A stretch of 64,000 nt of DNA, from the NCBI GenBank assembly GCA_002317135.1, contig DCIX01000041.1, positions 4,529-68,528 on the forward strand, written 5' to 3'. A program made the translations under genes and the position numbers. Positions 5,142 through 42,304 of this stretch are shown here, in pieces. Position 1 is the stretch's first letter, and each line of letters begins with the position of its first letter. This DNA is from Bacteroidales bacterium UBA1715. GTDB taxonomy: Bacteria > Bacteroidota > Bacteroidia > Bacteroidales > UBA1715. The notes beneath the pieces were generated by a model. It worked only from the letters and a program-made list of their open reading frames with translations, ran no database searches and was not told the DNA's origin.

Positions 5142-5152
5142 CACAGTATTAA

Positions 5153-5259: not shown

Positions 5260-5418
5260 CTACGTCCTTATCGTGCGGCGATAGCTCAATGCATAACTTT
5301 TACACTGCGGACAAAACAGATAATTTTCGTTTAATCTACAAAAGTCCGTATCTTCTTTCTTTGCAAACAAGTTTCCACATTCCGGGCAGAAGACATCTTC
5401 TTTTCTTTCACCAAACAT
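5260..5418 (-). CDS. unannotated 52-aa zinc-ribbon ORF (CPxC...CPxC)
   Basis: Hand translation gives MFGERKEDVFCPECGNLFAKKEDTDFCRLNENYLFCPQCKSYALSYRRTIRT then TAG at 5262-5260. It falls below the 60-aa cutoff of the ORF track. Two CPxC knuckles lie 21 residues apart. Confidence 0.3.
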   Translation of the reverse strand: MFGERKEDVFCPECGNLFAKKEDTDFCRLNENYLFCPQCKSYALSYRRTIRT

Positions 5419-5430
5419 TGGTCACCACAT

Positions 5431-5458
5431 GTAGAGACGGTGTGCACACCGTCTCTAC
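5431..5458. repeat. REP copy 1: 28-bp perfect palindrome GTAGAGACGGTGTGCACACCGTCTCTAC
   Basis: Exact match, intergenic. Confidence 0.95.
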
Positions 5459-5545
5459 AAACAACGTTCACGTTCAATATACACTGCCATTATATTGACA
5501 ACACAGGGCATGTGACAATGACGCATGGGCGGAATTTTACCGCAT

Positions 5546-5573
5546 GTAGAGGCGGTGTGCACACCGTCTCTAC
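5546..5573. repeat. REP copy 2 (one arm mismatch: GTAGAGGCGG...)
   Basis: 27/28 match. The A-to-G change at position 7 gives a G:T pair in the hairpin. It lies 10 nt beyond the stop of the RAYT fragment. Confidence 0.9.
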
Positions 5574-5583
5574 CATTACGATG

Positions 5584-5871
5584 CTATTCAGTGTTTAATT
5601 CATCATTCTGCCAGGTTACAACATTTTTTTCAATATATTCCGATATGCGTTTGATTTCATCCTGATTGCGTATAATATGGTCGTGGAAACGGGTTTGCCA
5701 AACGAATGGAATGTTGTTTTGGTTGGCATAATTGGTAATGGCACGTTTCAGGCCACCTATAACAACAGATAAATGCCCCTTGTTTTTAGAAATAGTTTGC
5801 ATTTTATCATTCACCACATCCGATTTCCTACGTTCACCCGTAGAGACGGTGTGCACACCGTCTCTACTCAT
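5584..5871 (-). pseudogene. C-terminal half of a second, diverged RAYT (IS200/IS605-type Y1 transposase) gene, beginning exactly at a REP
   Basis: SRDGVHTVSTGERRKSDVVNDKMQTISKNKGHLSVVIGGLKRAITNYANQNNIPFVWQTRFHDHIIRNQDEIKRISEYIEKNV aligns with residues ~120-212 of the intact RAYT at 9173-9811. The N-terminal and HUH parts are missing. Confidence 0.75.
5840..5867. repeat. REP copy 3
   Basis: Exact 28-bp palindrome. It forms the 5' end of the RAYT fragment and lies 11 nt from the hsdR stop. Confidence 0.95.
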
Positions 5872-5878
5872 TTTTATT

Positions 5879-8800
5879 CTAACAATACCTCTTAAAATTC
5901 TCAGCCTGTTCTATCACTTTGTCATACACATCTTCAGGATGGTCCTCGGCTGGCGGATACTTATGTTTAGCCATAATCACGATTAAATCGAACTGCATTT
6001 CCGACATGATATCAGCACGCTTAAAGCAGTCGGTATAATGGGTTTTGTCGGCTATAATCGCTTTCATTTCCTTAGCAATCTCAATCATATTTTCATCTGG
6101 ATAATCAAAACCTCGTTCATCACGAACAGATTTTAGAATATCGAAAAATGCTTTTTCCTCATAATCTATACCAAGATCTTCATGAGACTTGCGTTCTTTG
6201 TCTAATTCCTCCATCATCTTCTTAATGTCGTCAACCACTTTTTTCATTACTTCAGTTACGTTGGCAACATCGTCGCTGCGGTCGTTATACGTGCGAATGA
6301 TTTCGTTTAAACGCTCGCCAAACACAATAGACTTGACTTTGTTCACTTTTCCGAATTCTGAAATCTGCTGTTTCACCAAGCGTTCCAACATGCGAAGTCT
6401 AATGTTTGGCAGATTTATCTTTTCTATACAATCGAGATGTTTCTTGTCGAAAATATCAAGGTCACCTTTTGTATCTTCCACTATCTTCACAACTTCTTCC
6501 ACACCGCTACTAACAAGAGCATCGGCTACTAATTTTCGAACACGTTCGTTCATCTCGGCTACATCGGGTGCATCGCCTTTGGTCATTTTGAATACAATGG
6601 AACGAACTGCGGTGAAGAACAACACTTTCTCTCTATGTATTTTATGCAAATTCTCGCTTGACGAACACATATTAAATGCCTGACGCATACGTTTCGCATG
6701 ACCCATAAACAAATTCTTACGTTCCTCTTCTTCCAATACAAAGTTTGCTCCTCCATTTAAGCATTGTAACTGTTTTAGAGCACTTTTTGCAAAGAAATCT
6801 TTATAATCGTACTTGTGCATAATGCCGTCGAGCACTTCGATTTCGTCTTTAACTATAGTAACAAGTTCGTCTATGCCTTCGGTTGGATCATCTCCACCAT
6901 CGCCTTTATCTGTACCATATTGTTTGAGGGCCTTGTTCATATTGCGTTTAATGCCGAGATAATCGACAACAAGACCTTTTTCTTTTCCCTCGCACACACG
7001 GTTTACACGACTGATGGTTTGAATAAGCGTATGTCGTTGCAATGGTTTGTCAACATACATAGTGTCGAGACTCGGAACATCGAAACCGGTGAGCCACATA
7101 TCAACAACTATCACTATTTTAAAGTTTGAATGTGGTTCTTTGAACTGACGTGCCCACTCTTGACGGTCGGCTTTATTGCCAAGCAATTTCGATAATTCCG
7201 GAACATCGTCTTTGTTGGTAGTCATCACCATTTTTACACGTTCCATTGGCAGAAGTTTGTCTTTTTCGTCTTCGGCAAGTTCAAACTCTGATGCACATGG
7301 TAGTTTCTTTGCCCATTCAGGACGAAGTGCTATGATATTTTTATATAAGTCGAAAGCTATTTCACGCGACGAACACACCACCATTGCTTTTCCGCACACG
7401 GTTGCTCCTTCGGCTATGCGTTGTTCGTAATGCGCAACAAGGTCTTCTGCAACTTTTTGCAAACGTTTTGGATCACCAATAATAGCATCCATCGTGGCAC
7501 TTTGCTGCTTGCTTTTGTTTATCTGTTCCTCGGTGCTTCCTGCATCCTCACATTCTTCATAATACTTGTCTATTGCTTCCAATTTTTCGTTGTCGGCAAA
7601 AACTTTGGCAGCACGACCTTCATAAACAATTCGCACAGTGATTCCATCGTTTACCGAATCGACCATAGTATATTTATCTACCACACCGCCAAACACGGCA
7701 ATGGTTTCGTCGATTGGTGTTCCTGTAAAACCGACATAGATTGCATTCGGCAACGAATTGTGCAGATATTGTGCAAAACCATACGTAGTTTTCATTGCGG
7801 TTGCCATACCATCTTTATCGAATGAAATCCGGGTTGATTCCTCCAAATTGGTTTGGGTACGATGTGCCTCGTCGCTTATGCAGATAATGTTTTTGCGATC
7901 GCTCAGCAGATTAATATCTTCCGAAAATTTCTGTATCGTGGTTAGAAACACGCCTCCACTTTTTCGACCGTTCAGTTTCTTGCGTAATTCTTCACGGCTG
8001 TCTATTTGTTCGATGGTTTCGTCGCCAATAAATTTTTTAGCACGGATAAACTGACTTGAAAGCTGGTCGTCGAGATCGGTTCTATCAGTTATAAGCAAAA
8101 TAGTCGGTGACTCCAGTTCGGTTGAACGCATCAACATTCTGCTCAAGAAAAGCATAGCCAAACTTTTACCACAACCTGTAGCGCCAAAATACGTTCCTCC
8201 TTTTCCATCGCCAATCTTATGATGTTCCAAAATGTTTTGGTACAACATAGTAGCAGCAAAATATTGCGGATAGCGGCATACTATCTTCTCTTCTTTGGTA
8301 CTTGAATCAGGGAAATAGATAAAGTTGCGCACAACTTCGAGCAAGCGTTCTTTGCGAAACAAACCGTGTACCATTGTAAAGAGGGAATCAAGTCCGTTAC
8401 TTGGCTTGTCCTCCGGTTCGATACGATTCCATGCATAGAAATATTCATATGGAGTAAACAACGAACCAAATTTATTTTGTGCTCCGTCGCTTATCACGAC
8501 AAATGCATTGTACCGGAACAAACTTGGAATATCTTTACGATACCGAACAGTGATTTGCGTAAAAGCATCTTTTATAGTACAATGTTCCTTTACAGCTGTT
8601 TTGAATTCCATCACCACCAACGGCAAACCGTTTACATACACAATAGCGTCAGGACGACGGTTACACACCTCAACAATCTCAACCTGATTCACAATTTTGA
8701 AATCGTTGTTTTGGGGATGGTCGAAATCTATCAATCGAATCCATAATGGTTCCTTCGTAGAGACGGTGTGCACACCGTCTCTACCATCATCCAAACCTGC

Positions 8801-9082
8801 GACCTCCCTACGCAACGGGAAACCCTCGACAATCATCTGCATTACACGGCGGTTTTCGTCGTATAGATTTTGCGACTGTTGTGCCTTGAGCATAAGGATT
8901 ACCTGCTGAATTTCTTCCTCGGTTATATCAGCATAGTGTGCACGCAAATAAGCCTCTATATCCTCAACAAGAAGAACCTCGGCCAAGTTTTTATGTAACT
9001 GTTCACCTAATTTATGTGTATAGTGCTCTTCGTCTCTGAAGAGCTCCATTATTGCATTTTCAAGTGTGGATTCGTTAAACAT
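5879..9082 (-). CDS. hsdR: type I restriction endonuclease subunit R (system 1)
   Basis: 1067 aa. N-terminal PD-(D/E)xK-like DAIVYVNGLPLVVMEFK, Walker A GATGCGKS, DEAH box ICISDEAHRTQ. Carries an in-frame REP-encoded RDGVHTVST at residues 101-109. Confidence 0.93.
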   Translation of the reverse strand: MFNESTLENAIMELFRDEEHYTHKLGEQLHKNLAEVLLVEDIEAYLRAHYADITEEEIQQVILMLKAQQSQNLYDENRRVMQMIVEGFPLRREVAGLDDGRDGVHTVSTKEPLWIRLIDFDHPQNNDFKIVNQVEIVEVCNRRPDAIVYVNGLPLVVMEFKTAVKEHCTIKDAFTQITVRYRKDIPSLFRYNAFVVISDGAQNKFGSLFTPYEYFYAWNRIEPEDKPSNGLDSLFTMVHGLFRKERLLEVVRNFIYFPDSSTKEEKIVCRYPQYFAATMLYQNILEHHKIGDGKGGTYFGATGCGKSLAMLFLSRMLMRSTELESPTILLITDRTDLDDQLSSQFIRAKKFIGDETIEQIDSREELRKKLNGRKSGGVFLTTIQKFSEDINLLSDRKNIICISDEAHRTQTNLEESTRISFDKDGMATAMKTTYGFAQYLHNSLPNAIYVGFTGTPIDETIAVFGGVVDKYTMVDSVNDGITVRIVYEGRAAKVFADNEKLEAIDKYYEECEDAGSTEEQINKSKQQSATMDAIIGDPKRLQKVAEDLVAHYEQRIAEGATVCGKAMVVCSSREIAFDLYKNIIALRPEWAKKLPCASEFELAEDEKDKLLPMERVKMVMTTNKDDVPELSKLLGNKADRQEWARQFKEPHSNFKIVIVVDMWLTGFDVPSLDTMYVDKPLQRHTLIQTISRVNRVCEGKEKGLVVDYLGIKRNMNKALKQYGTDKGDGGDDPTEGIDELVTIVKDEIEVLDGIMHKYDYKDFFAKSALKQLQCLNGGANFVLEEEERKNLFMGHAKRMRQAFNMCSSSENLHKIHREKVLFFTAVRSIVFKMTKGDAPDVAEMNERVRKLVADALVSSGVEEVVKIVEDTKGDLDIFDKKHLDCIEKINLPNIRLRMLERLVKQQISEFGKVNKVKSIVFGERLNEIIRTYNDRSDDVANVTEVMKKVVDDIKKMMEELDKERKSHEDLGIDYEEKAFFDILKSVRDERGFDYPDENMIEIAKEMKAIIADKTHYTDCFKRADIMSEMQFDLIVIMAKHKYPPAEDHPEDVYDKVIEQAENFKRYC
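8757..8784. repeat. REP copy 4, inside the hsdR coding sequence (in frame)
   Basis: Exact palindrome. The offset from the hsdR ATG is 298 nt, so it is read as G-RDGVHTVST. Confidence 0.95.
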
Positions 9083-9107
9083 TTACCTACATGTACATTT
9101 GATACAA

Positions 9108-9115
9108 CAAAGGTA
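9108..9115 (-). promoter_or_regulatory. candidate -7 box TAccTTTG for hsdR
   Basis: The minus strand reads tacctttg about 25 nt upstream of the hsdR ATG (9082), just downstream of REP copy 5. Confidence 0.35.
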
Positions 9116-9148
9116 AAAAAATAATTCAGATAATAGATTGCGTTAATC

Positions 9149-9176
9149 GTAGAGACGGTGTGCACACCGTCTCTAC
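9149..9176. repeat. REP copy 5, overlaps the RAYT stop codon
   Basis: Exact palindrome. The minus-strand GTAG supplies the TAG stop (9175-9173) of the RAYT ORF. Confidence 0.95.
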
Positions 9177-9811
9177 AGACGATATTCATCCAATTGCCAT
9201 TGTGCAACATTATTTTCGATATATGTGGCAATACGATTCAATTCATCCTGATTACGAACAATATGGTCGTGAAACCGTGGTTGCCAGGCGAATGGAATAT
9301 TGTTGGTATTGGCAAAATGGGTAATGGCACGTTTCAAACCACCGATAACAACAGACAATTGGCCCTTGTATTTAGAAATGTTTTGCATTTGTTCGTTCAC
9401 GACATCCGATTTCCATCGTTCATCCGTAGAGACGGTGTGCACACCGTCTCTACACGTACCGCCATCGTTTTCGTTTACCATATTGAATACCCCATCAATA
9501 ACAACAATTGCATGAATATGGTTGGGCATTACCACAAACAATGGTATTTCGGCGTACGGATAATGCGATTGTACGTTTACAAATTGTTTGTGGGCGTATT
9601 GACCAATTGGGGATAATTGCATCTGTGATTCAGGTATTACCATTCCCGTAGAGACGGTGTGCACACCGTCTCTACAATCGGTTGTTATTTCCCCGAAATA
9701 ATGTTCACGATTTTTGGTGCATATCGTTATAAAATATACGCCGCCGTTGTATCCGTGCCACGGCGCACGTGCCGATGATACACGGTATTTGTTTTGAAAT
9801 TTTTCTGCCAT
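9173..9811 (-). CDS. REP-associated tyrosine transposase (RAYT; IS200/IS605 Y1 HUH family)
   Basis: FQNKYRVSSARAPWHGYNGGVYFITICTKNREHYFGEI N-terminus, HUH motif MPNHIHAIVVI (H98/H100), C-terminal RFHDHIVRNQDELNRIATYIENN with candidate catalytic Tyr197. Two in-frame REP insertions encode CRDGVHTVST at residues 46-55 and 120-129. Confidence 0.85.
   Translation of the reverse strand: MAEKFQNKYRVSSARAPWHGYNGGVYFITICTKNREHYFGEITTDCRDGVHTVSTGMVIPESQMQLSPIGQYAHKQFVNVQSHYPYAEIPLFVVMPNHIHAIVVIDGVFNMVNENDGGTCRDGVHTVSTDERWKSDVVNEQMQNISKYKGQLSVVIGGLKRAITHFANTNNIPFAWQPRFHDHIVRNQDELNRIATYIENNVAQWQLDEYRL
9426..9453. repeat. REP copy 6, in frame inside RAYT
   Basis: Exact palindrome, read as C-RDGVHTVST (residues 120-129). 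Confidence 0.95.
9648..9675. repeat. REP copy 7, in frame inside RAYT
   Basis: Exact palindrome, read as C-RDGVHTVST (residues 46-55). Confidence 0.95.
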
Positions 9812-9951: not shown

Positions 9952-9979
9952 GTAGAGACGGTGTGCACACCGTCTCTAC
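9952..9979. repeat. REP copy 8
   Basis: Exact palindrome, intergenic upstream of RAYT. Confidence 0.95.
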
Positions 9980-10145
9980 AATGCGGTGCAAATGGTTACG
10001 AAATATATTCCCCCATTATAATTATGCCAATTGGCACGGGCCGACGGTACGCGATATGTATTTTTGAATGTATCCATTGTTTCGTTTATTTTATTGTTAA
10101 CACATTGTGCGATTTGCCATGACCGTTATCGTTTTCCAGCCCCCC

Positions 10146-10173
10146 GTAGAGACGCGATTAATCGCGTCTCTAC
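10146..10173. repeat. REP variant with swapped palindromic core (GTAGAGACG-CGATTAATCG-CGTCTCTAC)
   Basis: The outer 9 bp of each arm are identical to the consensus. The central 10 bp GTGTGCACAC is replaced by CGATTAATCG, and the whole is still a perfect 28-bp palindrome. Confidence 0.9.
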
Positions 10174-10198: not shown

Positions 10199-10226
10199 GT
10201 AGAGACGGTGTGCACACCGTCTCTAC
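10199..10226. repeat. REP copy 10
   Basis: Exact palindrome, 25 bp from the variant copy. Confidence 0.95.
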
Positions 10227-11863: not shown

Positions 11864-13021
11864 TTACCCCGCCATCACCAACGATAGCAGTTCTGTTAAT
11901 TTATTAATTTCGTTATCTAATATTTTTATATCTTCATCGATGATTTTTGCTTTTGACTCAAAGTCAACGACTAATTTTTCATCTGGAATAACTACAGACA
12001 ATCCAAACAAATCATCTTTCGTTATGCTTCCAAAAACAGTTCCATCTTCATTTGAAACATTGAAATCGTGTTCTTTGGTTTGCAATAGATAATAAATGAA
12101 AGAGTTGCAACCGATTTTGCTACGCAATGCCGCTAAACCTCTACCAATGCAACAATCATGCGGTGCAATGTTCAAATCACCAACAGGAGCACGAACACTC
12201 AACAAGACATCTCCTAATTTAGCTATTCTTGTTGGTGCTGTTGTGTACATACGAATACTAGGGAATCTGTAACCATAATCAGTTCGCCCTTGATAGAAAA
12301 TCATTCCTTCGCTTTTTTCATTGTATGTTGAACCATCCGGAGATTGTCCCATCGTTATCTCTGCCACTTCTCCCAGTGTTCCCATTCTCCACCCTTCCGG
12401 CAGATTCTCCACATCCACATCATCCACAAACATTTTTCTATATAATGCTTGAGCGGCCTCTTCGAGTTTGGCTATGGTTTGTTTGTTGGTGGCAATGCGG
12501 TTTTGAATGGATTGGTAACGCAACACAATGCGGCGCTGTTCTTCGATGGAGGGAACGGGCAACTGTACATTACACATTTCTTCCCAATCAAAAACCTCAC
12601 GAGCACTGCCGTGCGAATGAAAACGTGCATAACGATCAAATTCTGCACGACGAAACCACATCATCAGATATTCTGGTAATAATTGTAGAGACGGTGTGCA
12701 CACCGTCTCTACGGAATCACACATATCTACAATTTCAAACACAACGTATGCCTGCGAAATAATGGCAGGTTCATCGCCTGTATATAATGCAACGGTTATC
12801 TTTTCACCATTACGTGATGTTACTGGTACATAAGCGAATTGGTTATGCTTTACAATCTTGTATGGGCGAAGATCTGTTCCAACCATATTGGCTATGGAAG
12901 GAATAAAAACTTTAGCATTGCTTAATCCCAAAAGATTGGTGCATCGCAAATCACTATTCCTCACGTCCACTTCACGGATATAATCCCCCAGACGTTTATA
13001 TGTAGAGTTGTTGTTTGTCAT
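11864..13021 (-). CDS. hsdS: type I R-M specificity subunit S, two TRDs (system 1)
   Basis: Two target-recognition halves separated by the conserved PSIEEQRRIVLRYQSIQNRIATNKQTIAKLEEAAQALYRKMF region. The preferred start MTNNNSTYKRLGDYI is at 13021; the alternative ORF-track start at 13057 overlaps hsdM. Contains the in-frame REP peptide VETVCTPSL. Confidence 0.88.
   Translation of the reverse strand: MTNNNSTYKRLGDYIREVDVRNSDLRCTNLLGLSNAKVFIPSIANMVGTDLRPYKIVKHNQFAYVPVTSRNGEKITVALYTGDEPAIISQAYVVFEIVDMCDSVETVCTPSLQLLPEYLMMWFRRAEFDRYARFHSHGSAREVFDWEEMCNVQLPVPSIEEQRRIVLRYQSIQNRIATNKQTIAKLEEAAQALYRKMFVDDVDVENLPEGWRMGTLGEVAEITMGQSPDGSTYNEKSEGMIFYQGRTDYGYRFPSIRMYTTAPTRIAKLGDVLLSVRAPVGDLNIAPHDCCIGRGLAALRSKIGCNSFIYYLLQTKEHDFNVSNEDGTVFGSITKDDLFGLSVVIPDEKLVVDFESKAKIIDEDIKILDNEINKLTELLSLVMAG
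12685..12712. repeat. REP copy 11, in frame inside hsdS (alternative reading frame)
   Basis: Exact palindrome. The offset of 345 nt from 13057 means it is read GTA GAG ACG..., giving VETVCTPSL. Confidence 0.95.
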
Positions 13022-13031
13022 CGCAAAGAAA

Positions 13032-14606
13032 TTACAATTTATACCCCAATTCCTCAAACACTTTCTTCACGGCCTTTTTGCTTTCTTCCTCTTGGGCAAA
13101 AAGTTCACGTAATTCTGTTTGAAGTCTGCTCATTGTTTCTTCGTAGCCGGCGTAATCGTCGCGGTTCACAAACTCAATGTATTTGCTTGGCACAAGCGAA
13201 CTATCTTTCAAATCGGTTGTCTTTACTGATTTGCAGAATTCTGGCACATCGGTGTATTCGCCCAAATCGGTGCGTTGCCATTGGTGGAACTTCTTGGCTG
13301 CGTTTGTAATATCGTCCGTGCTGAATGTGGTATATTTCTTTTCGAATGGTTCGCCCCATGTACGTAAATCCATAAACAGTATCTCGTTTGCACGCTCACG
13401 GTATTGGCGTTGCTCGCCGTTTACCGTTGTTGTACGGGCATGTTTGTTACGGTTTAGTATCCACAACGTTACCGAAATGTCGGTAGTATAGAACATATTT
13501 CGTGGAAGAATCACAATAGCCTCCACTGCATCGTGTTCTTCAATCAAAGCCTTACGAATTGCTTTTTCGTCACCATCGCCACTCAATGCGCCATTGGCAA
13601 GCAAAAAGCCGGCAATACCATCGGTAGAAAGCTTTGAGAAAATATTGAGTATCCACGCATAGTTGGCATTGCTTGTAGGTGGTACGGCAAAACCTTTCCA
13701 ACGAGGATCGTCGAGCAGTTCGCTTGATTCGCGCCAATCTTTTTGGTTAAAAGGAGGATTTGCCATAATGTAGTCGAACTTCTCTCCTTTATGCTGATCG
13801 TTTTGGAAAGTACTGGCAGCTTTTTCTCCCAAATTGGCCGAAATACCACGAATGGCAAGGTTCATCTTCGCCAGCTTATAGGTTGTGAGCGTGAACTCTT
13901 GTCCGTAAACCGAAATATCGCGTTTGTTTCCGTTGTGGTTTTCAATAAAACGGCTACTTTGCACAAACATACCACCAGAACCACAGGCAGGATCGTACAC
14001 TTTCCCTTTATACGGTTCTATCATTTCGGCAATGAGATTTACAATAGCCTTAGGCGTATAGTATTCTCCCTTACCCTTACCTTCCTGCAAAGCGAAGTTC
14101 GAAAGACAGTATTCATACACACGGCCAAAGAAATCATTATCTTCGTCCATGTGTTTTTCCATATCGTTCACTACATCGAGCAACGAGCCCAATTTAGCGG
14201 CATCTATACCCAGACTGCTATAATAGTTCGAAGGCAATGCGCCCGCAAGTTGTTTATTGTCTTTTTCTATATCGGCAAGCGCTTTGTCTATAATCTGCGC
14301 AATATTTGGCTGCTTAGCGTTTTGCATAATATAGTTCCAACGACAATGTTCCTGCAAATAGAATACATTATCCTTGCCGTAGGAAACAGGCATTTCGCAG
14401 AGCATATTGCCTCCACCAAATTGTTCTTCAAGTTTTTGGTATTGTTTTTCGAAACGAACACCTGCGTATTTCAAGAAAATCAAACTCAATACAACATGCT
14501 TGTATTCAGATGCTTCTATATTTCCACGTAGTTTATTAGCCGCATCCCATAGTTGTGCTTCAATGGATTTTTCAGTTTTTTTTGCTGTAGTGCTTTTTTT
14601 CGCCAT
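13032..14606 (-). CDS. hsdM: type I R-M DNA methyltransferase subunit M (system 1)
   Basis: N-terminal HsdM domain (LWDAANKLRGNIEASEYKHVVLSLIFLKY), SAM motif I DPACGSGGMF, catalytic motif IV ANPPFN. Confidence 0.95.
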   Translation of the reverse strand: MAKKSTTAKKTEKSIEAQLWDAANKLRGNIEASEYKHVVLSLIFLKYAGVRFEKQYQKLEEQFGGGNMLCEMPVSYGKDNVFYLQEHCRWNYIMQNAKQPNIAQIIDKALADIEKDNKQLAGALPSNYYSSLGIDAAKLGSLLDVVNDMEKHMDEDNDFFGRVYEYCLSNFALQEGKGKGEYYTPKAIVNLIAEMIEPYKGKVYDPACGSGGMFVQSSRFIENHNGNKRDISVYGQEFTLTTYKLAKMNLAIRGISANLGEKAASTFQNDQHKGEKFDYIMANPPFNQKDWRESSELLDDPRWKGFAVPPTSNANYAWILNIFSKLSTDGIAGFLLANGALSGDGDEKAIRKALIEEHDAVEAIVILPRNMFYTTDISVTLWILNRNKHARTTTVNGEQRQYRERANEILFMDLRTWGEPFEKKYTTFSTDDITNAAKKFHQWQRTDLGEYTDVPEFCKSVKTTDLKDSSLVPSKYIEFVNRDDYAGYEETMSRLQTELRELFAQEEESKKAVKKVFEELGYKL

Positions 14607-14734: not shown

Positions 14735-14777
14735 AAATAGATAATTCTTGCTAATTTTGCAATAATTAGCAAGAATT
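14735..14777. promoter_or_regulatory. 43-bp element, copy 1, with 14-bp-arm palindrome AATTCTTGCTAATT-N7-AATTAGCAAGAATT (between Fic and hsdM)
   Basis: aaatagataattcttgctaattttgcaataattagcaagaatt. Arms are at 14743-14756 and 14764-14777. It overlaps the Fic stop codon and lies ~130 bp upstream of the hsdM ATG. The near-identical copy is at 16103-16145. Confidence 0.6.
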
Positions 14778-16080
14778 ATTTTATTTTTATTTTATTTTCA
14801 AAATGTTCGCTTTTAAGGTATCCACGTTTTACCTTATTGATAGCCACCTCGTTAAGATATTTTTTCTCAACCAAATCCGTCAAATCTCTTCTTGCAGTCA
14901 TTTGTGTTATCATAAATCTGTCCATTACATCCTTAACGGTGATAACAGATTCAGGATTTTTTTGAAAATGATGAATAATCTGAGCCTGACGCTCGTTTAT
15001 ACCACCAATCATAATAAAGCTGTTTGCGGCCTCTTTTTCTTTTTGTTTCCTTTCAATATAGTTCTTGAGTTGCTCAAACGAGATTTTCAATGTTCTTAAG
15101 TTGTACGATACAAAATAGCTTACATCAAGTCCGTCGTTCTCAACATAGAGAAACGATTTTTCGTATGTTACTTTTGAACCAGAAATGATTCTGGAAATAG
15201 ACATATATTCCGTCAACCAATATTTCTCTTTAAGCATGTACCAATAAAACAAAGCCCTGGCAGTACGGCCGTTTCCGTCTATGAATGGGTGCATGTACGC
15301 TATCATAAAATGGACTATGATTCCACAAATGATAGGATGAATAAACACTTGCCCATTACCTTCGTTAAAAAACACACATAAATCATCCAAAAACTGTGGT
15401 AGTTCGCTGGCTGGAGGCGGCGTGTGAACCACTTCGTGGGTTATCTTGTTTTCTACAACCACGTCGTCATCTGCGGTTCTAAGTCTTCCTGCATCGTTGG
15501 CGTTCTCCAGCGTCTTTTCCGTCATTAGCCGATGAATGTAAAGAAGATTCTCTTTTGTGAGAGGTTCGTCTTTATGCTCCGTAATATATTGAATCGTCCG
15601 ATAGTTGTTCACTATCATTTGCTGTGATTTATCCTTTGGAGCAATGTTCTTTCTTAGCATTTCTTTTGCAACCATGCGTGTGGTTGAAGCACCTTCCATT
15701 TTGCTGGAATAGATAGCTTCCTCCATGAGCGAACTTGCCAGATAATGCATTTTCTCTTTCCCAGATTCTTCGTTTGATTCCCAAAAAGAACCGAACATCA
15801 TGTCGAACTCGTGACACAACTTCTGCATTTGGTTTGTTACGCACAGTGTCATGCCATATCTCTTCCACGCAGGTATGGCGTTTTTCATACGGTTTATTTT
15901 AACGTATGTCCACAAGTCCTCTGCCGAAACACCAGGCACTTGACCAGCCTTGTACTTTACCTTGTCCCAATAATCGTACGTTTCGTTTATCTTGTTTACA
16001 AGTGCATCAATGTTGACATCTGTTTTTTCAAACAGCGCCTTCCGCATTATTTTGTCGTTAAGTTTTGGAGCGTTTTCCAT
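14776..16080 (-). CDS. Fic-family protein (AMPylase-type) with C-terminal winged-helix domain
   Basis: Canonical Fic motif HPFIDGNGRTARAL. Upstream inhibitory-helix-like motif SSKMEG matches (S/T)xxxE(G/N). C-terminal wHTH-like segment ITVKDVMDRFMITQMTARRDLTDLVEKKYL. Confidence 0.9.
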   Translation of the reverse strand: MENAPKLNDKIMRKALFEKTDVNIDALVNKINETYDYWDKVKYKAGQVPGVSAEDLWTYVKINRMKNAIPAWKRYGMTLCVTNQMQKLCHEFDMMFGSFWESNEESGKEKMHYLASSLMEEAIYSSKMEGASTTRMVAKEMLRKNIAPKDKSQQMIVNNYRTIQYITEHKDEPLTKENLLYIHRLMTEKTLENANDAGRLRTADDDVVVENKITHEVVHTPPPASELPQFLDDLCVFFNEGNGQVFIHPIICGIIVHFMIAYMHPFIDGNGRTARALFYWYMLKEKYWLTEYMSISRIISGSKVTYEKSFLYVENDGLDVSYFVSYNLRTLKISFEQLKNYIERKQKEKEAANSFIMIGGINERQAQIIHHFQKNPESVITVKDVMDRFMITQMTARRDLTDLVEKKYLNEVAINKVKRGYLKSEHFENKIKIK

Positions 16081-33979: not shown

Positions 33980-36900
33980 CTACTTCACCTCACACTCTCC
34001 ACTAACTGTGCAGCCAAATAGTGTGTTATCGTACATACATTCTGCGGTAACTGCTGGCATATAATATATACCTGCGTATGTTGCAGAAAGGCTTGCACGA
34101 ATTGTTACTTGCTCATTTCTTCCTAATGTGTTTATATACAATAGTATTCTATCGTCACGAATATCTTTGTAATCGACGGCACTATTGTCCTGAACAGCCA
34201 ATGTTTCAAAGCCTGCAGGCAAAATGCTTGTAACGGCTATGTTTTTCAATTGGCTTCCTGATGTATTCGTAATCGTGTACACAACGCAACAAGTTTCTCC
34301 TTGGGCTATAGATGTAACATCTTTATCATATGAAACAGTAACCGAAAGCCCATTTGAAACGGCTGTAACTGGTTCCTGTACTGCTGTTCCTTCCGAAATT
34401 GTCGTTACATACAATGTACCTTTTCCTTTGTTGTTTACAGACAAATCTACCGAAGGTTTTCCGTTAACCAAAACATTGCTCCACGACATCATATTCGTAG
34501 AAACGTTCGCAAACTCTTTATTGTTCGTATTCACAACAAAATTCATATCGCTTGTGGTACCATTTTTCTGGTAATACATATTCATTGCATACAATGACAA
34601 CGCTATTTCACTTGTCGAAAGCCATTTATTCGAGGCTAATCTATTACGAACGGTTGTGGCTGTTTTTCCAGCATTCGCATCGTCTAACAAAGACTGAACT
34701 AACAAATCCGTTACGGAATTGTCGCACCACTGCCAAGCGAGTCCTTTTTGTTGACTACGTAATTCGTTCGCCACCTTTTTCTGACCAATCATCGCATACG
34801 CTGCGGCTAAATAACCTAAAGTTGTCGAAGACAATGATTTTGCAGACTCTTTCATTCTGTTCATTGTACTTTTTTCTGGGGAACCGTACGCTGCCAACAC
34901 ATACAACGAGTATGCAACAGTCTGACATTCATATTCGTATCCGCTTGATTTCCAATTACGAACTTGTAAACTTACATATCTCTTTAAGTCGGATTTCATA
35001 GCATTATTCACGAAATATCCTTTCTTCGATGCTCTATCCAAAAACATTAGAACATAAGCAGAAACCCATTGATCCGCGAAAGCACTTCCTGGCCAATATG
35101 CCATCCCGCCATCGTGCGTCTGATATTTTGACAATTTCTGAAGAACATCGTTCACATTCTTATGTATCTCGTTTTTCTGGCTCAAAGTAACTTCGGTAAA
35201 ATCCTTTAAATACATTTGTGCCATAGCCTTCGATGTAATTTGTTCTGCACAGCCGTGTGGATATTGAATCAACTGCGAAGTACGTCCAGCAAGATTCATA
35301 GATGGAACATTCGACACTTCCATACGAATTTGTTGATTGCTACTGCCTGGTGCAATTACTTTTGCGGAATAATTAGATCCTGCCTTCACGACTTGCTGGT
35401 CAATTTTTGTAATATTCTGACTAACAGCACGAATCGTAATATCTGTTGAATAGACAGATTTCTCAGAAGCCGATGTGCTTGTTATTGTAATATTGCCAAC
35501 ACCTGCTTTTGATCCTGCCTTAATTCTAAATTGCACTGTCTTGTCACCCATACCATTAAAGTTAGTTGTAACGGTATTTGAACCAACGACTTGCAATCCT
35601 CCCGAGCAAGATATTGTTGTTTGCACATCTTTTATGTTTTTATCTGTCACAAAAACTGTTGCCGATACCGTCATTTCGTCGTTTACACCTATTTGTCGTG
35701 GCATTGTTCCCGCAACCATCAAGGATTTTCGTACAAATACAGACTTTTCCGAAGAACCGTATGCCGCTCCATCCGAAGCAACAACCATTACACGAACACG
35801 ACCATTATAGTTTGGAACATCTATATTATGTGTATTCTTCTTTCCTTTTTCCAAATAATATGGTCCGCTAAAATAAACCATTGGTTTAAAACGATTTACT
35901 ACAGCTTTTGGACCATCATACAAACTTTCATCACCACCGATGCTGAACAATTGATCAATTGTTCCACCATAAGCACCACAAATCAATCCATACAAATCCC
36001 ACATACGCAACCCCAACGATTCTTTTGCATTGAATACCGACCACGCATCAGGAGTTTTGAAACGAGTTAAATCCAACAAACCTTCATCTACTATTGCCAA
36101 GGTGTAAGCCATTGGTTTTCCGTCTTTTTCGCTTACCGTTACCGTAAACGGCGCCATTGGTTTAACCTCATCTTGTGATTGAATTTGTGGAGTTAAATGA
36201 CTTGCAGCAGAGTTTACATTGATAGATTTCACACCATACAAACGAATAGGAACATCATTGTCCATCGTATGATTATATGGTTGAATTACCGTTACCGCAA
36301 CATACGCGTTCGGCATCATTTCCTCTGTTGCCTTACAACTCACCGTTGTCTGTGCATCATGACATTCCACAAATTTCATATCGAGTATTTTTGCACTATT
36401 GCATACGCTTACTATCGCACGGCTACCTTTTGTCGACGGAAATGTTACATTCACTGTTTCTCCCGGTTTATATTCGTCTTTATCAATTTGCAAAGACAAT
36501 GTCACCGAAGTTTCGCCGCCTTCAACAGAACGAGATTCCGAACCATCATAGTCAAAATAAGCCAACACACTTGTAGAATGTTTATATACAGGATCGACAA
36601 CACGAATCAAGTATGTTCCCCACTCTTCATTTTTCATATTCAAATCAAACGAAGTCTTTCCCGATGCATTTGTTGTTACATTAAGCGTTTTAAATGGTTT
36701 ATTATAACTTGAATTAGTGTAATTTGCCAACTCGTCGGCTGAGCAATTCCACCACCAATACCATTGAACCTTATACACCTCAATTTGAATAGGCACAGAA
36801 CTTATACCCGAACCAGACGCATCAACAACAGCTACGTCGAATTTTTGGGTAGTATTCGTCAACAAATAATCTTGTTTTGAATTTGGAGCTTTTATACCGA

Positions 36901-39415
36901 CATAGCGCACATACGGCGAATATTCAACAAGTTGCACATCAGTACTAAATTCGCCACTTGATTCGTACACTCGTGTTGTCACATTACAAGAAAGTTTTCC
37001 TGGAGCTTCTGAATACTTCGGCATATCAAAAACTACAGTTGCTTTACCTTCTGTATTGGTAACACCATGAGCAACTTCCTCTTCTCGTGGATCAAACGAC
37101 TTCGATTTGTCCTCAAAAGTATAACCATCCCAAGATTTGAACGAGGTCTTGCCATTCACAAATTTCGCCGAAACATCATATTTCAAATCATGCGTTTTTC
37201 CACCAGTCAACCATTCGCTACTTAATGATACAGTTTGAGTGCCCGCTACCAATTGTTTCGGTAACTCAAGGTTTATTTTTAAGCGATTTGGCTTGATTGT
37301 TTCCACACGAAGTCGTTTGCTAAAAGTTGAACCACCCACTTGTATTGTCGCCAACCAACTTCCTGTCTGAGCACTTTCGTCCGTAGGGATTTCAAATGTG
37401 TATAATCCACAAATGCCTTTGGTTTTAGTTTGCTTCATACATTTTTGTCCGAGTGGATTGCTCACTTCCAAAACAACAGGGTGATTTTCCGGCAATGTTT
37501 TTTCTCTATCATTCAACATAAACGATAGGTAAATCGTATCGCCCGGACGCCAAACGCCACGCTCACCATAAATATATCCTTTCAATCCATTTTGCACCTC
37601 ACTACCCGACACGTCAAATGTACTGGTTGAAAGTTCCTCGCCCCTACGAACTTTTACCGTAGAAATATCCGTTCCTTTCTTGGCAATCACAAAATATGGA
37701 GCACCTTGATTCTCCTTAATAGCAACATCTACACGACCTTCTTTGTCTGTTTTGCCTTCGGCAATCACTTGCGACTGTTTATTGTATACCGAAACCTCAA
37801 CATCCGACATTGGCTTCGCATCAAGTATGTTTGTTGTAACTATCGTCATTTTATTTGCAGAAGGTGCAAGAGCAAGCAATCCTATATTTGTTGACAACAC
37901 ATTCTTACCAACATTTTTATAGCAATAGTATGCTTTCTTTTCAGGATTTCGTTCGTCTTCCCAACTGTAATAATAATCGTCACCATCGCTATAACTGCAA
38001 CTACTTGACATATAATACCAATTATAATCGCCATCAAATTCGTTGCTTAGGTTCGCCATTTCAACCTTATCTTCTTTTTCTATATCTTCCTTGTTGAACG
38101 AAGCGTCCACTCCCGGCCAAGCTGAAAGTCTATAATCCATATATAATTCTACACGATATACGCAACCTGGATCAACTTTAACCAAATCAGACAAATCAAT
38201 CGCACACGTCTGCCATTTGGTAAAATCAGAAGTTTCATCCAAGAAGAAAGTTTTTACCGCAACTGGTCGTCCTAACAGTTTTAAATTATCATAATCAGCA
38301 AGAGAACCTTGTTGCATTAGCAATGGTATATTGTTCTTATAAATTTTGAACACTTTCGCCTTCACGCCACGCATATAAATAGACCTGAACGGAATCACAA
38401 ATGTGTTGGTTTGCGGTATAATGTTGCCGTTGTCCAAGAACACGATTTCGGGAAGAACTTGCTTTAATTCAATTTTACGAGTCACATCGGTATTCAACAA
38501 CAACCCAGACTTACTACGGATATTCTTAGAAAGGAACAATGTAACTTCTTCGTTTGCACGACTTTCAGGATACAATTTCAGTGTATTACCCGATGCTTCA
38601 ACAGCAACTGATTCATTATTTATAAGATATGCCAATCCTTTTTTACTTTGCTTTGGATCCAAATTTTTATTGAATGTCACCAATATATATTTCGTATTTT
38701 CCGAAACATAGCGAACATCAAACACACTCAAAGTTTTTGGATCAGGAACAGCAACACGAACTAAATCTTTTGCATCCAACTGATAGTCTTTATGTGCCTT
38801 AGTAGAAAGCGAAATTGTCTGTTCCTTTGTCGGTGTGAACGATACTTTCACCGAATACAATTGTGGTGATTGCGAAGTCCAATCGGCTTTTACATTCTGT
38901 AGACCATCTGTTATAGAAACAACCGACTTCACAACATCGAGCGTCTCAACATCCAATGAACGAACAGTAAATTCATATACATAGTCGCCATTTTCCGCCT
39001 CGGTAAATGTCTCAAAATTAGCAGTTAAACGGAACGGCAATGTTTGAAACGTGAATGTAAATTTCTTAGAATCATCATCGAACAATTCATCTAAATCCGC
39101 CGTAATCGTATAAGTTGTATTATAAGCCATATCCTCCCCTGGCGTAAATACAATTGTATGCGAATCGAAATACGAAAATTCACCTTTTACCGCAGGAGAA
39201 ATCGACATAAATTTATTCGGTTTACGCTTTTCTATAATCGAAGAATCCAAATCTTCCGATAAAATCAAAAACACAGACGCTTTTCGCGATATGTTTCCCG
39301 AAGTAAAACCAACAACATGTTCATTAAATGCAATTTCTGCTTCATCTTTTGATGAACACTGGCAGAAAAACAACGCCATACAGGCAATCCACAACAACAA
39401 TAAGAACTTTTTCAT
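33980..39415 (-). CDS. bacterial alpha-2-macroglobulin family lipoprotein (MG domains, thioester region)
   Basis: 1811 aa. Signal/lipobox-like MKKFLLLLWIACMALFFCQCSS. Thioester-type motif YPHGCAEQ (CxEQ). Confidence 0.9.
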   Translation of the reverse strand: MKKFLLLLWIACMALFFCQCSSKDEAEIAFNEHVVGFTSGNISRKASVFLILSEDLDSSIIEKRKPNKFMSISPAVKGEFSYFDSHTIVFTPGEDMAYNTTYTITADLDELFDDDSKKFTFTFQTLPFRLTANFETFTEAENGDYVYEFTVRSLDVETLDVVKSVVSITDGLQNVKADWTSQSPQLYSVKVSFTPTKEQTISLSTKAHKDYQLDAKDLVRVAVPDPKTLSVFDVRYVSENTKYILVTFNKNLDPKQSKKGLAYLINNESVAVEASGNTLKLYPESRANEEVTLFLSKNIRSKSGLLLNTDVTRKIELKQVLPEIVFLDNGNIIPQTNTFVIPFRSIYMRGVKAKVFKIYKNNIPLLMQQGSLADYDNLKLLGRPVAVKTFFLDETSDFTKWQTCAIDLSDLVKVDPGCVYRVELYMDYRLSAWPGVDASFNKEDIEKEDKVEMANLSNEFDGDYNWYYMSSSCSYSDGDDYYYSWEDERNPEKKAYYCYKNVGKNVLSTNIGLLALAPSANKMTIVTTNILDAKPMSDVEVSVYNKQSQVIAEGKTDKEGRVDVAIKENQGAPYFVIAKKGTDISTVKVRRGEELSTSTFDVSGSEVQNGLKGYIYGERGVWRPGDTIYLSFMLNDREKTLPENHPVVLEVSNPLGQKCMKQTKTKGICGLYTFEIPTDESAQTGSWLATIQVGGSTFSKRLRVETIKPNRLKINLELPKQLVAGTQTVSLSSEWLTGGKTHDLKYDVSAKFVNGKTSFKSWDGYTFEDKSKSFDPREEEVAHGVTNTEGKATVVFDMPKYSEAPGKLSCNVTTRVYESSGEFSTDVQLVEYSPYVRYVGIKAPNSKQDYLLTNTTQKFDVAVVDASGSGISSVPIQIEVYKVQWYWWWNCSADELANYTNSSYNKPFKTLNVTTNASGKTSFDLNMKNEEWGTYLIRVVDPVYKHSTSVLAYFDYDGSESRSVEGGETSVTLSLQIDKDEYKPGETVNVTFPSTKGSRAIVSVCNSAKILDMKFVECHDAQTTVSCKATEEMMPNAYVAVTVIQPYNHTMDNDVPIRLYGVKSINVNSAASHLTPQIQSQDEVKPMAPFTVTVSEKDGKPMAYTLAIVDEGLLDLTRFKTPDAWSVFNAKESLGLRMWDLYGLICGAYGGTIDQLFSIGGDESLYDGPKAVVNRFKPMVYFSGPYYLEKGKKNTHNIDVPNYNGRVRVMVVASDGAAYGSSEKSVFVRKSLMVAGTMPRQIGVNDEMTVSATVFVTDKNIKDVQTTISCSGGLQVVGSNTVTTNFNGMGDKTVQFRIKAGSKAGVGNITITSTSASEKSVYSTDITIRAVSQNITKIDQQVVKAGSNYSAKVIAPGSSNQQIRMEVSNVPSMNLAGRTSQLIQYPHGCAEQITSKAMAQMYLKDFTEVTLSQKNEIHKNVNDVLQKLSKYQTHDGGMAYWPGSAFADQWVSAYVLMFLDRASKKGYFVNNAMKSDLKRYVSLQVRNWKSSGYEYECQTVAYSLYVLAAYGSPEKSTMNRMKESAKSLSSTTLGYLAAAYAMIGQKKVANELRSQQKGLAWQWCDNSVTDLLVQSLLDDANAGKTATTVRNRLASNKWLSTSEIALSLYAMNMYYQKNGTTSDMNFVVNTNNKEFANVSTNMMSWSNVLVNGKPSVDLSVNNKGKGTLYVTTISEGTAVQEPVTAVSNGLSVTVSYDKDVTSIAQGETCCVVYTITNTSGSQLKNIAVTSILPAGFETLAVQDNSAVDYKDIRDDRILLYINTLGRNEQVTIRASLSATYAGIYYMPAVTAECMYDNTLFGCTVSGECEVK

Positions 39416-39967: not shown

Positions 39968-39995
39968 GTAGAGACGGTGTGCACACCGTCTCTAC
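39968..39995. repeat. REP copy 12 (the only copy outside the 5-13 kb block)
   Basis: Exact 28-bp palindrome, 2 nt after the pbpC stop codon. Confidence 0.95.
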
Positions 39996-39997
39996 AA

Positions 39998-42304
39998 CTA
40001 AATCACATGTATCAAAATCGCTCTTCTATTTCCTTTTTCATCTACAATAGACAACACATGGTCTCCTTTGGGAGGAATGATTCCCAACTTATGAGAACCT
40101 TCTGTCTTACCAATATATTCAGTATCTAAATGCCAAAATAACACAGTATTTGGTTTGCGATTAACCGCTTCAAACACAACATGTTCCAACGAACCATCAA
40201 ATCCTCGTGGAACGAATATCGTTGCATTATGTTCCGGATAAATAAAATCTATTTGATCGGCATTTCCATAGTCACAATCCTCACGGAATGGCGGCAACAC
40301 ATGATAATCGGCATGTTTGGTTTTATAATAATACTCCTGTGCCGCAGGAAGAACAAACCATTGCTTTGTTTGAAATTCGTCGACAGTGACACATTGGGAA
40401 TTTACTTGCCACAAACCATCTGTACTTATATGAACTATACGACAATACGGACACTGTGTTGTTTGTGCAGATACAGAAGGTAAAAAAACAGTATCCGTAA
40501 AAGCACAATTTTCTGTTGCTAAACAGCCACTTTGACGACATACGACCATTGTTTCCATATCGGTTGTCGGTTTAACAAACCATTCCGAGTTTTCCAATAA
40601 GGCAAATACATCAAACATAACTGGTGACGCATAGCCAACGCCTGTCATTCCGGCACGACCCTCGCCTGTTGCATTTCCCGTCCATACCCCAACAACATAT
40701 TTCGGCGTTACGCCAACCGACCACGCATCACGACTACCCCAACTCGTTCCCGTTTTCCATGCTATATTTTTCATAGAACGAAATTGCGACCATTCAGCTT
40801 CTTCCTCTGGCCTATTTAATTTCGACATAGCATCAATTGCATACCAAATTGCCGGCTTTGTTAAACGACACTCTTCTGTATCTTTTTCTTTTGACTGTAG
40901 CTGAACCGACAATTTACGATACATCTGGCATAAATCCCACAGTTTTACTTCCACACCACCCAAAATCAACGAAGCACCATAATGGTCTTCATTATAATGC
41001 AATGTGTTCATTCCCAACCACTTTAAATCCTCCATAAACCGTCCGGGACCATGCTGCATAAGCATACGAACCAAAGGTACATTCAATGATTGCACAATAG
41101 CATCGTCGGCGTGTACTGCACCACTAAATGTATGGCTGAAGTTCGACGGCGTAAAACCATTGATAGACAACGGCGTATCGGAAATCAACTGACGTGGAGT
41201 AATCTCGCCACTACTTATCATTGCGGCGTACAAAAACGGTTTGAGCGTACTTCCAGGACTACGTTCACTTTGCACAATATCGACTTGCCAAGCTTCAACG
41301 GACATATCGGTTGTATTACCGACATAGGCAATTGGATTTCCCGTTTCTACATCAAGAACAAGAATGGCAATATTATCTATATGGTTTGAATTATGATACG
41401 AGCGAGCATAGTCGTTCGCCAACCGTTGTACCATAGTTTGCAAGCGAGAATCTATATCGGTTTTTATCTGTTTACCATTATTCTTCTTAGACAAAAAATC
41501 TAAATAATGCATTGCATTATTCGGTATGGCATACGGTTTATCGGGAAGCGGTTCCTCTAAAGCCAAAGTGAGTTCTTCTTCGGTAATAAATCCATTCTCG
41601 TGCAAAGTACGCAACAATCCATCGCGTTTCTTTTGTAATTCCGAACGATTTCGAGATAGATGTATCAATGATGGCGAATTTGGCAAAACCGCAAGGCAAC
41701 ACATTTCCGCCCACGAAAGACGTGAAATCTCACGATTACAATAACGCCATGTGGCAGCATCGAGCCCGACAATATTGCCACCAAACGGAGCATGCGATAA
41801 ATATAAACGAAGAATTTCCTCCTTGGAATGCGTCAATTCTATATCTATTGCCCAGAAAATTTCTACAATCTTATTCCAAACTGTTCGTGGTTGATTTCCT
41901 CTAGCCATACGAGCCACTTGCATAGTCAGCGTACTGCCACCCTCACGACGACCATTTCCGCTCATATTATGCTTACAAGCACGCAGAATAGCAATTGGAT
42001 CTACACCCAAATGTCTATAAAAACGTTTGTCTTCATACTGAATAAGACAAGTTATAAACTTTTCGTTCAAAGAATCTGTTTCCGGAAAACGCCACTGTCC
42101 GTCAGCCGCAATGCGTGCACCAAGCAGTGCACCATTTTTATCCAACAACACCGTCGAGGTTGAATCGCGGAACAATTGCCGTGGCATTACAAGCCAATGA
42201 AACAAGGTAAAAAACAATATGCAACCACATATCAGGATAAGAAAAAAGGACATTAGCGCATGTCCTTTCATTTTTACAAATATCTGATTAGCAAACTGTT
42301 TCAT
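39998..42304 (-). CDS. pbpC: penicillin-binding protein 1C (glycosyltransferase + transpeptidase)
   Basis: GT51 motifs (EDKRFYRHLGVDP, GGSTLTMQ), transpeptidase region SPGSTLKP, and a C-terminal PbpC-type domain. Confidence 0.9.
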   Translation of the reverse strand: MKQFANQIFVKMKGHALMSFFLILICGCILFFTLFHWLVMPRQLFRDSTSTVLLDKNGALLGARIAADGQWRFPETDSLNEKFITCLIQYEDKRFYRHLGVDPIAILRACKHNMSGNGRREGGSTLTMQVARMARGNQPRTVWNKIVEIFWAIDIELTHSKEEILRLYLSHAPFGGNIVGLDAATWRYCNREISRLSWAEMCCLAVLPNSPSLIHLSRNRSELQKKRDGLLRTLHENGFITEEELTLALEEPLPDKPYAIPNNAMHYLDFLSKKNNGKQIKTDIDSRLQTMVQRLANDYARSYHNSNHIDNIAILVLDVETGNPIAYVGNTTDMSVEAWQVDIVQSERSPGSTLKPFLYAAMISSGEITPRQLISDTPLSINGFTPSNFSHTFSGAVHADDAIVQSLNVPLVRMLMQHGPGRFMEDLKWLGMNTLHYNEDHYGASLILGGVEVKLWDLCQMYRKLSVQLQSKEKDTEECRLTKPAIWYAIDAMSKLNRPEEEAEWSQFRSMKNIAWKTGTSWGSRDAWSVGVTPKYVVGVWTGNATGEGRAGMTGVGYASPVMFDVFALLENSEWFVKPTTDMETMVVCRQSGCLATENCAFTDTVFLPSVSAQTTQCPYCRIVHISTDGLWQVNSQCVTVDEFQTKQWFVLPAAQEYYYKTKHADYHVLPPFREDCDYGNADQIDFIYPEHNATIFVPRGFDGSLEHVVFEAVNRKPNTVLFWHLDTEYIGKTEGSHKLGIIPPKGDHVLSIVDEKGNRRAILIHVI

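Follow-up and report, generated by a model that had tools for sequence, protein, structure and literature searches.

A palindrome read in frame within hsdR of a Bacteroidales bacterium is probably a "double-foot" REP of the adjacent RAYT family

Two studies of repetitive extragenic palindromes (REPs) and their REP-associated tyrosine transposases (RAYTs, or TnpAREP) come closest to the element considered here. Quentin, Siguier, Chandler & Fichant (2018, BMC Genomics, PMC6006769) described subclass 2.4 of TnpAREP with "double-foot" REPs of the form 5' GT[AG]G ... C[TC]AC 3', and presented as a unique feature of that subclass REPs that occupy a place between HuH and Y in the tnpAREP gene and leave its frame unbroken. 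Di Nocera, De Gregorio & Rocco (2013, BMC Genomics, PMC3733652) described GTAG/CGTC-tagged REPs situated in frame inside open reading frames (ORFs) that are probably functional, many of them in genes for DNA transactions. Here, we analyze a perfect 28-nt palindrome, GTAGAGACGGTGTGCACACCGTCTCTAC, that is translated within hsdR, the gene for the R subunit of a type I restriction enzyme, in a stretch of 64,000 nucleotides from Bacteroidales bacterium UBA1715 (assembly GCA_002317135.1, contig DCIX01000041.1, positions 4,529 to 68,528 of the forward strand). We refer to this whole stretch as the window and count positions from its first letter (Table 1). With a probability of roughly 0.8, the palindrome is a "double-foot" REP from the family of the adjacent subclass 2.4 RAYT gene, inserted together with short flanks at a permissive loop of HsdR and tolerated there. 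Because the element type and in-frame intragenic REPs have both been published, the hsdR case is a good new example and not a new phenomenon. The less expected result is that the center of the palindrome tracks the local RAYT variant at orthologous intragenic sites, and this tracking, together with a high intragenic share, is the part worth following.

The palindrome starts 298 nt past the first base of the hsdR ATG and is read, after a G, as RDGVHTVST (residues 101-109), which places it 36-52 residues N-terminal to the nuclease residues D145, E159, and K161. An earlier note on this DNA, made from the sequence alone, had reported the exact 28-mer at this point of the 1067-aa gene with its frame kept, and both coordinates and translation agree with ours. 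The note had also called it a REP-type palindrome, for which we found a clustered family and a RAYT gene alongside; it mentioned neither that gene, nor the copies read in frame in hsdS and within the RAYT, nor the variation of the center at the orthologous site. Eleven copies with at most one mismatch occur in the window, against 0.00 expected from 100 dinucleotide-preserving shuffles, and a further copy has identical arms around another center (GTAGAGACG-CGATTAATCG-CGTCTCTAC), for a total of 12; chance is thereby excluded. Of these, 11 lie at 5431-12712 in one 7.3-kb cluster around the RAYT gene, while the remaining copy is 27 kb away. GTAG at one end and CTAC at the other, the two tags of a "double foot," are present in 12/12.

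Comparison among HsdR homologs identifies the palindrome as part of an insertion. Among the 44 closest cluster representatives, extra residues at the site are found only in P0001 (92% identity) and P0008 (73%); the others read PLKR(D/E)-D(A/Q)xxx-LWIR. We then turned to the 18-member, 90%-identity cluster that contains the window protein. The site is empty (PLKREDAKL/ESLWIRL) in one member, P0368, which shares 95.7% identity, whereas the remaining full-length members have it occupied by RDGVHTVST, RDAARHVST, RDVACNVST, RDVTRNVST, or RDVARNVST. In DNA, the empty allele of locus L247 runs ...CTA/GAA... at the point where the filled alleles of the window and of loci L001, L248, L249, and L250 carry additional sequence; in the window, this is the 28-mer with 7 nt on one side and 4 nt on the other. 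The predicted gap in the homolog alignment does coincide with the palindrome, but it spans 13 residues (DDG-RDGVHTVST-K) and not about 10, and the earlier estimate of an inserted unit of 28 plus about 2 nt gives way to a difference of 39 nt, 11 of them beyond the palindrome. That difference also rules out a plain 30-nt insertion. In the closest genomes, copies of the repeat share asymmetric flanks (..GCATT/28-mer/GGGG..), which the flanks of the hsdR insert resemble. We considered whether the element could be a miniature inverted-repeat transposable element, in which a non-palindromic body is enclosed by terminal inverted repeats and a target-site duplication accompanies insertion, and rejected this, as the whole element is a single palindrome and filled and empty junctions display no consistent duplication.

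These alleles also bear on the reading that the peptide is ancestral, with a DNA symmetry that is coincidental or an artifact of assembly. Most homologs, including the 95.7%-identical one, are without the residues of the insert; the insertion recurs in assemblies of independent origin (NCBI, JGI, Logan); and the ten further copies in the window have none expected by chance. We found nothing in favor of this reading and regard it as having a negligible chance of being correct; the repeat copies, the empty sites, and the independent assemblies rule out both coincidence and artifact. The window and L001 lineages share the flanking substitutions PLRRE/DVAGLDD, which makes separate insertions in the two unlikely, while the more distant P0008 may have gained its extra residues independently. 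At hsdR nt ~225-330, L247 (4222-7386, empty) and L248 (6001-9228, filled) differ at 12 of the 21 nt next to the insertion point and are identical over the 45 nt before those, a pattern that resembles the boundary of a short tract of recombination or conversion.

The protein that carries the insert appears to be intact. HsdR has full-length Pfam matches to HSDR_N, SWI2_SNF2/ResIII, T1R_D3-like, and T1RH-like_C. It combines an N-terminal PD-(D/E)xK nuclease, an SF2 helicase motor, and a C-terminal helical domain, and hsdS and hsdM lie in the same block. Its match in the PDB is the HsdR of EcoR124I, with similarity that starts at residue 115, just past the insert. In an alignment of 47 homologs, D145, E159, K161, Walker A (G300-S307), and DEAH (D404-H407) are all invariant columns, in keeping with the intact nuclease and helicase motifs noted before. 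AlphaFold2 predicts a coil for residues 91-112 between strands 88-90 and 113-115; residues 95-107 have a pLDDT below 50 and the neighboring blocks 83-86. Mapping on the model, which had been proposed as a check, hence puts the insert in a loop of the nuclease domain that is itself of low confidence and is bordered on either side by a well-predicted beta-strand.

Conceivably, HsdR has lost its activity in a subtle way through the insertion, and the system is now methylase-only, with the open frame as a recent remnant. The R subunits of type I systems are often lost or inactivated, and the insert does sit within the nuclease domain, close to its catalytic residues. Yet the filled alleles of the window and L001, which are ~79% identical in DNA, both stay full length, with a nonsynonymous difference (pN) of 0.052 against a saturated synonymous difference (pS) of 0.79 and a dN/dS of 0.026 over the first 270 codons. 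In addition, at least 10 members of the 90% cluster from independent assemblies retain the insert in a gene of ~1054-1075 aa, the catalytic motifs do not vary, and the loop is predicted to be exposed. We consider inactivation quite improbable. The loop position, the purifying selection, and the invariant motifs fit the alternative that the earlier note had also offered, and we infer from sequence and model that the protein still works, with an insert that its surface loop tolerates. An intact HsdR under strong purifying selection argues that the insert is a tolerated passenger and probably neither an inactivating lesion nor a dedicated regulator.

The gene directly upstream of hsdR encodes a RAYT-like nuclease of 212 aa, or 192 aa without its two palindrome inserts. 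Palindromes flank it on both sides and two more lie inside, the arrangement known as a "REPtron." Its motifs NHIH, WQ, and YIENNV match the subclass 2.4 signature (NH[IFV]H / WQ / YIxNNP) save for the final V in place of P, its best NCBIfam model is REP_Tyr_transpos (NF047646), and its only match in the PDB is TnpAREP of Escherichia coli (4er8; E 0.0012), aligned over HuH and WQPRF...YI. The RAYT frame, which ends in ...LDEYRL, is closed by a TAG (9173-9175) that belongs to the flanking palindrome, so that the repeat defines the C terminus of its own nuclease. At least one palindrome-encoded peptide, in either frame, is present in each of 103 of the 120 closest RAYT homologs. At ~2008-2056, inside the RAYT gene of L003 (1665-2357), tandem partial left arms (GAGACGCGATAA repeated) precede a complete palindrome, giving RDAIRDAIRDAMNRVST, and similarly stuttered peptides such as RDVARN.VSTS.ARNVST occur in many RAYT homologs.

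Judged from its motifs, length, and taxonomic range, the gene fits TnpAREP subclass 2.4, or RAYT group 4. It shares with subclass 2.4, as far as the available part of PMC6006769 describes it, the nuclease motifs, a length of ~190 aa without inserts, REPs both flanking and in frame within the gene, and a distribution over Cyanobacteria, Bacteroidetes, and scattered other phyla. That paper is focused on transposase genes, and its available part contains neither in-frame copies in hsdR or hsdS, nor GTAGAGACG arms shared across phyla, nor tracking of RAYT variants. The GTAG tag and the association with RAYTs in "REPtrons" are also found in PMC3733652. However, the Bacteroidetes REPs in that study are tagged with CGTC only and not GTAG, its REPs bear just one GTAG, which is terminal and unpaired, and VST/VET-type peptides are absent from its supplementary list of intragenic REPs. 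The E. coli REPs and bacterial interspersed mosaic elements, with their TnpAREP, likewise pair an HUH/Y1 nuclease with a GTAG-tagged hairpin, but that nuclease belongs to subclass 2.2, the similarity is marginal, and the REPs are imperfect, bulged, and almost entirely extragenic. Rickettsia palindromic elements, which are ~100-150 bp long and confined to Rickettsiales, have no RAYT partner. They resemble the hsdR element, which belongs to a family of 28-30 bp with an adjacent RAYT, in being palindromic repeats that lie in frame in protein-coding genes and are tolerated in surface regions (also cited in PMC3733652).

Beyond the window, the family takes the form GTAGAGACG-N10-CGTCTCTAC, with constant 9-nt arms that each start with the guide tetranucleotide GTAG and a variable, self-complementary center of 10 nt. 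We scanned for this pattern in one genome per species with N10 unconstrained and obtained at least 120 loci; the counts that follow are among the matches listed. They come from Bacteroidota, Cyanobacteria, Chloroflexi, Acidobacteria, Spirochaetes, Planctomycetes, Ignavibacteria, Zixibacteria, Desulfuromonas, Methylococcales, and others. Centers were perfectly self-complementary in 88 of 128 occurrences and in 35 of the 73 distinct sequences, against 0.42 expected; all four Watson-Crick pair types occurred at each stem position of the center, and G-T pairs were rare. Since N10 had been left unconstrained, this self-complementarity points to constant arms around a covarying center. The innermost pairs of the center are 84% and 71% Watson-Crick (L004-L123), although those bases would form the loop of a hairpin, and hairpin stability alone does not explain symmetry through the four central bases. 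Searches of full-text literature with the arm sequences GTAGAGACG/CGTCTCTAC and with GAGACG returned unrelated primer matches only, and nothing specific was found in literature on small dispersed cyanobacterial repeats.

Among the 128 occurrences in other genomes, the commonest unit of the repeat is a 30-nt palindrome (TGTAGAGACG-N10-CGTCTCTACA), or 10 codons, and two of its three frames are without a stop codon while the third reads TAG, so in-frame copies in permissive loops can survive. The exact 28-mer is present in at least 120 metagenome contigs of unrelated context, with a G+C content from 38 to 59% and no overlap with the window; a megablast of the window against 120 of these loci found no shared context. 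Among the matches listed, 52 of 126 copies (~40%) are embedded in a long open frame (200 codons or more, with no fewer than 25 to either side of the copy). When at least 100 open codons were required on both sides, 40 copies occupied the two open frames and none the TAG frame, as is typical where selection removes disruptive insertions. The same ratio speaks against RNA-level removal or ribosomal bypass, which we had considered as ways to tolerate the repeat. Copies recur at one conserved site in diverged TPR/HTH regulator paralogs (...DSLMWQxPDSAL...[C/G]RDGVHTVST...HYxxLLLAELLYKND) and in a variable loop of the C-terminal secretion-sorting domains of very large surface proteins (type IX secretion system, or T9SS, tails). 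Loci with the 28-mer in one or the other of these contexts are L127, L148, L159, L161, L186, L201, L237, and L238, and also L144, L173, L190, L202, and L215.

At the orthologous hsdR site, arms and position are constant among filled alleles and the center is not. It reads GTGTGCACAC in the window, TTGCGCGCAA in L250, TTACGCGCAA in L001, TTGCGTGCAA in L248, and CGGCGCGCCA in L249, and among the differences that separate the window from L001, two are compensatory double changes. All five genomes have an hsdR copy that differs by 0-1 mismatch from the variant in or flanking the adjacent RAYT gene, and the variants themselves differ between genomes. In L002, no RAYT gene was found within the contig stretch examined, and the hsdR copy is decayed (GTGGAGACGCCGCACGCCACGTCTCTAC). 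A similar pattern is seen in hsdS, where the orthologous site encodes VETVCTPSL, VETQNFASL, or VETHGRASL in different lineages, the preceding five codons have diverged by ordinary substitutions, and most HsdS homologs are 10 aa shorter. In the related type I locus of L245, hsdM carries an in-frame palindrome with one center mismatch (7661-7688). The split hsdR of that locus (14366-17680) was a candidate for disruption by the palindrome; its cause is an unrelated TAA codon in a gene without palindrome.

Taken together, the hsdR alleles suggest that centers follow the local RAYT variant through replacement or short-patch conversion from nearby copies, possibly mediated by the RAYT. Higgins et al. 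reportedly proposed in 1988 that REPs evolve by gene conversion. The sequence of events may have been as follows. In an ancestor of this hsdR lineage, a 39-nt unit, consisting of the 28 nt with short flanks, would have gone into the loop that connects two beta-strands in the N-terminal nuclease domain; single-strand cut-and-paste by the RAYT, acting near its own gene, is the most probable route. The perfect palindrome and its RAYT-matching center would then have been kept by repeated replacement or conversion. A broader version of this idea, which we offer tentatively and consider doubtful as it stands, is that in-frame REPs are actively rewritten, with a perfect palindrome kept at fixed sites in hsdR, hsdS, RAYT genes, and regulators while its center is periodically replaced to match the nearby RAYT variant.

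Alternatively, the hairpin could be retained for a benefit to the host, by slowing or attenuating hsdR translation or by altering mRNA stability so that restriction lags behind modification. The element has the short length (20-40 bp), stable hairpin, and compensatory stem variation of a REP. The RNA form pairs over 12 bp around a 4-nt loop, at -25.7 kcal/mol in its 61-nt context (z -4.3); for DNA, the value is -13 kcal/mol (z -6.1). Furthermore, the palindrome is perfect at the hsdR site in several lineages while neighboring synonymous sites are saturated, and translation effects of REPs near stop codons have been reported in the literature. The hsdR copy, however, is deep inside the ORF and remote from the initiation region; terminator prediction did not flag it as an intrinsic terminator, and it has no U-tail. 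The element is found in frame in unrelated genes (T9SS tails, regulators, hsdS, hsdM, RAYT) and in both open frames, close relatives manage without the insert, and the center follows the local RAYT variant instead of an hsdR-specific sequence. A role in the service of the host, which the earlier note had raised in the form of an RNA hairpin that modulates hsdR translation, has nothing specific in its favor and is, in our judgment, unlikely.

The proximity of the nuclease gene raises a further scenario, in which the palindromes in hsdR and hsdS are working sites of the RAYT for rearranging or switching the restriction locus in a manner that resembles phase variation. In the window and in L001, L003, L248, L249, and L250, the gene immediately upstream of hsdR is a RAYT, related loci repeatedly carry palindromes in hsdR, hsdS, and hsdM, and palindrome-bounded RAYT fragments suggest palindrome-associated rearrangements. 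Against this, no inverted or alternative gene segments were seen, gene order was identical and copies were in frame in all loci that were read, and the element is equally common in genes unrelated to restriction. We consider such switching very improbable.

Several observations weigh against our interpretation of the palindrome as a tolerated REP of the adjacent RAYT family. The hsdR site is empty in L003 despite its adjacent RAYT gene, and adjacency is therefore not sufficient for insertion. The RAYT gene scores under the curated cut-offs of both NF047646 (52.4 bits vs 80) and PF01797 (17.8-18 vs 23), models that are centered on subclasses other than 2.4. At the filled and empty junctions, we did not find a consistent target-site duplication or target motif, and the 11 nt beyond the palindrome match the flanks of the family loosely. 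The AlphaFold2 model, built with 47 sequences, is moderate overall (mean pLDDT 67, pTM 0.44). Finally, to our knowledge, the mobility of REPs driven by RAYTs is still an inference in the literature.

The features of the window are collected in Table 1. The block around hsdR runs from a RAYT C-terminal fragment through hsdR, the RAYT-like gene, a RAYT N-terminal fragment, and a caspase-family gene to hsdS and hsdM, and the C-terminal fragment also carries one in-frame palindrome. A tRNA-Gly(CCC) gene at 5153-5226 borders this block of palindromes, RAYT fragments, and type I restriction genes, and could be the edge of a genomic island. An Rfam search of 5000-13200 with permissive filters recovered only the tRNA, along with a spurious plant miRNA match across several palindromes. 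The caspase-family gene (503-aa Peptidase_C14, 10337-11848) lies between hsdS and the RAYT cluster, and related loci have defense-type genes at the same spot, namely RhuM, AbiH, RloB/AAA, HamA, and Fic. Another palindromic repeat, AATAGATAATTCTTGCTAATT / AATTAGCAAGAATT..., has three matches in the window against 0.02 expected, and flanks a Fic/HTH gene (14776..16080) at 14731-14789 and 16102-16154. The sole palindrome outside the cluster occupies a classical REP position, just past the stop codon of a penicillin-binding-protein-like gene. REPs very near a stop codon are said to stall terminating ribosomes (Liang, Rudd & Deutscher, 2015). Next to this gene lies one for a lipoprotein-like protein of 1811 aa (33980..39415), and the two (33980-42304) may be the usual pairing of an alpha-2-macroglobulin with PBP1C.

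Table 1. Palindromes and associated genes in the window (positions count from its first letter)
Feature	Position	Strand	Remarks
hsdR, type I restriction enzyme R subunit	5879..9082	minus	1067 aa, full length, intact motifs
Probable "double-foot" REP in hsdR	8757..8784		5' GTAG ... CTAC 3'; read on minus as RDGVHTVST
Whole 39-nt (13-codon) insertion in hsdR	8753..8791	minus	coding strand GATGATG + 28-mer + GAAG = DDG-RDGVHTVST-K, relative to empty allele
RAYT-like HUH/Y1 gene (TnpAREP subclass 2.4 type)	9173..9811	minus	212 aa; NHIH at 97, AWQPRF at 175, YIENNV at 197
Palindrome flanking RAYT 3' end	9149..9176		supplies RAYT stop codon
Palindrome in RAYT gene, second in-frame site	9426..9453		CRDGVHTVST, residues 120-129, between HuH and Y
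Palindrome in RAYT gene, N-terminal in-frame site	9648..9675		CRDGVHTVST, residues 46-55
Palindrome upstream of RAYT gene	9952..9979		its TAG terminates RAYT N-terminal fragment
RAYT N-terminal fragment	9980..10078	minus	
Variant-center copy	10146..10173		GTAGAGACG-CGATTAATCG-CGTCTCTAC
Palindrome in RAYT-proximal cluster	10199..10226		
RAYT C-terminal fragment	5584..5871	minus	just downstream of hsdR; 63% identical to RAYT residues 94-189; starts with copy 5840-5867
Palindromes near RAYT C-terminal fragment	5431-5458, 5546-5573		1 mismatch in 5546-5573
hsdS	11864..13057	minus	
Palindrome in frame in hsdS	12685..12712		other open frame, VETVCTPSL
hsdM, methylase subunit of same type I system	13032..14606	minus	
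Sole copy outside cluster	39968..39995		extragenic, 2 nt past stop of 768-aa gene 39998..42304 (minus)

Our findings have consequences for how such sequences are read. In Bacteroidota, Cyanobacteria, and other phyla, a peptide of the form (C/G)RDxxxxVST or VETxxxxSL(Q/H) is a translated DNA repeat and should not be annotated as a conserved protein motif. The nuclease domain of a type I restriction enzyme seems to accept a 13-residue insert at a defined loop, which would be useful for engineering as well as for annotation. More generally, the locus speaks to the question of how RAYT nucleases keep their repeats uniform, for which it is a compact natural test bed that combines a RAYT gene with alleles both filled and empty and with several center variants at one orthologous site. 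If in-frame REPs are indeed actively rewritten, this would imply a mechanism of short-patch replacement that depends on the RAYT or on the hairpin. Combined with an intragenic share of ~40% in rumen Bacteroidales, such rewriting would make these repeats a continuing source of loop insertions of 10-13 residues across proteomes.

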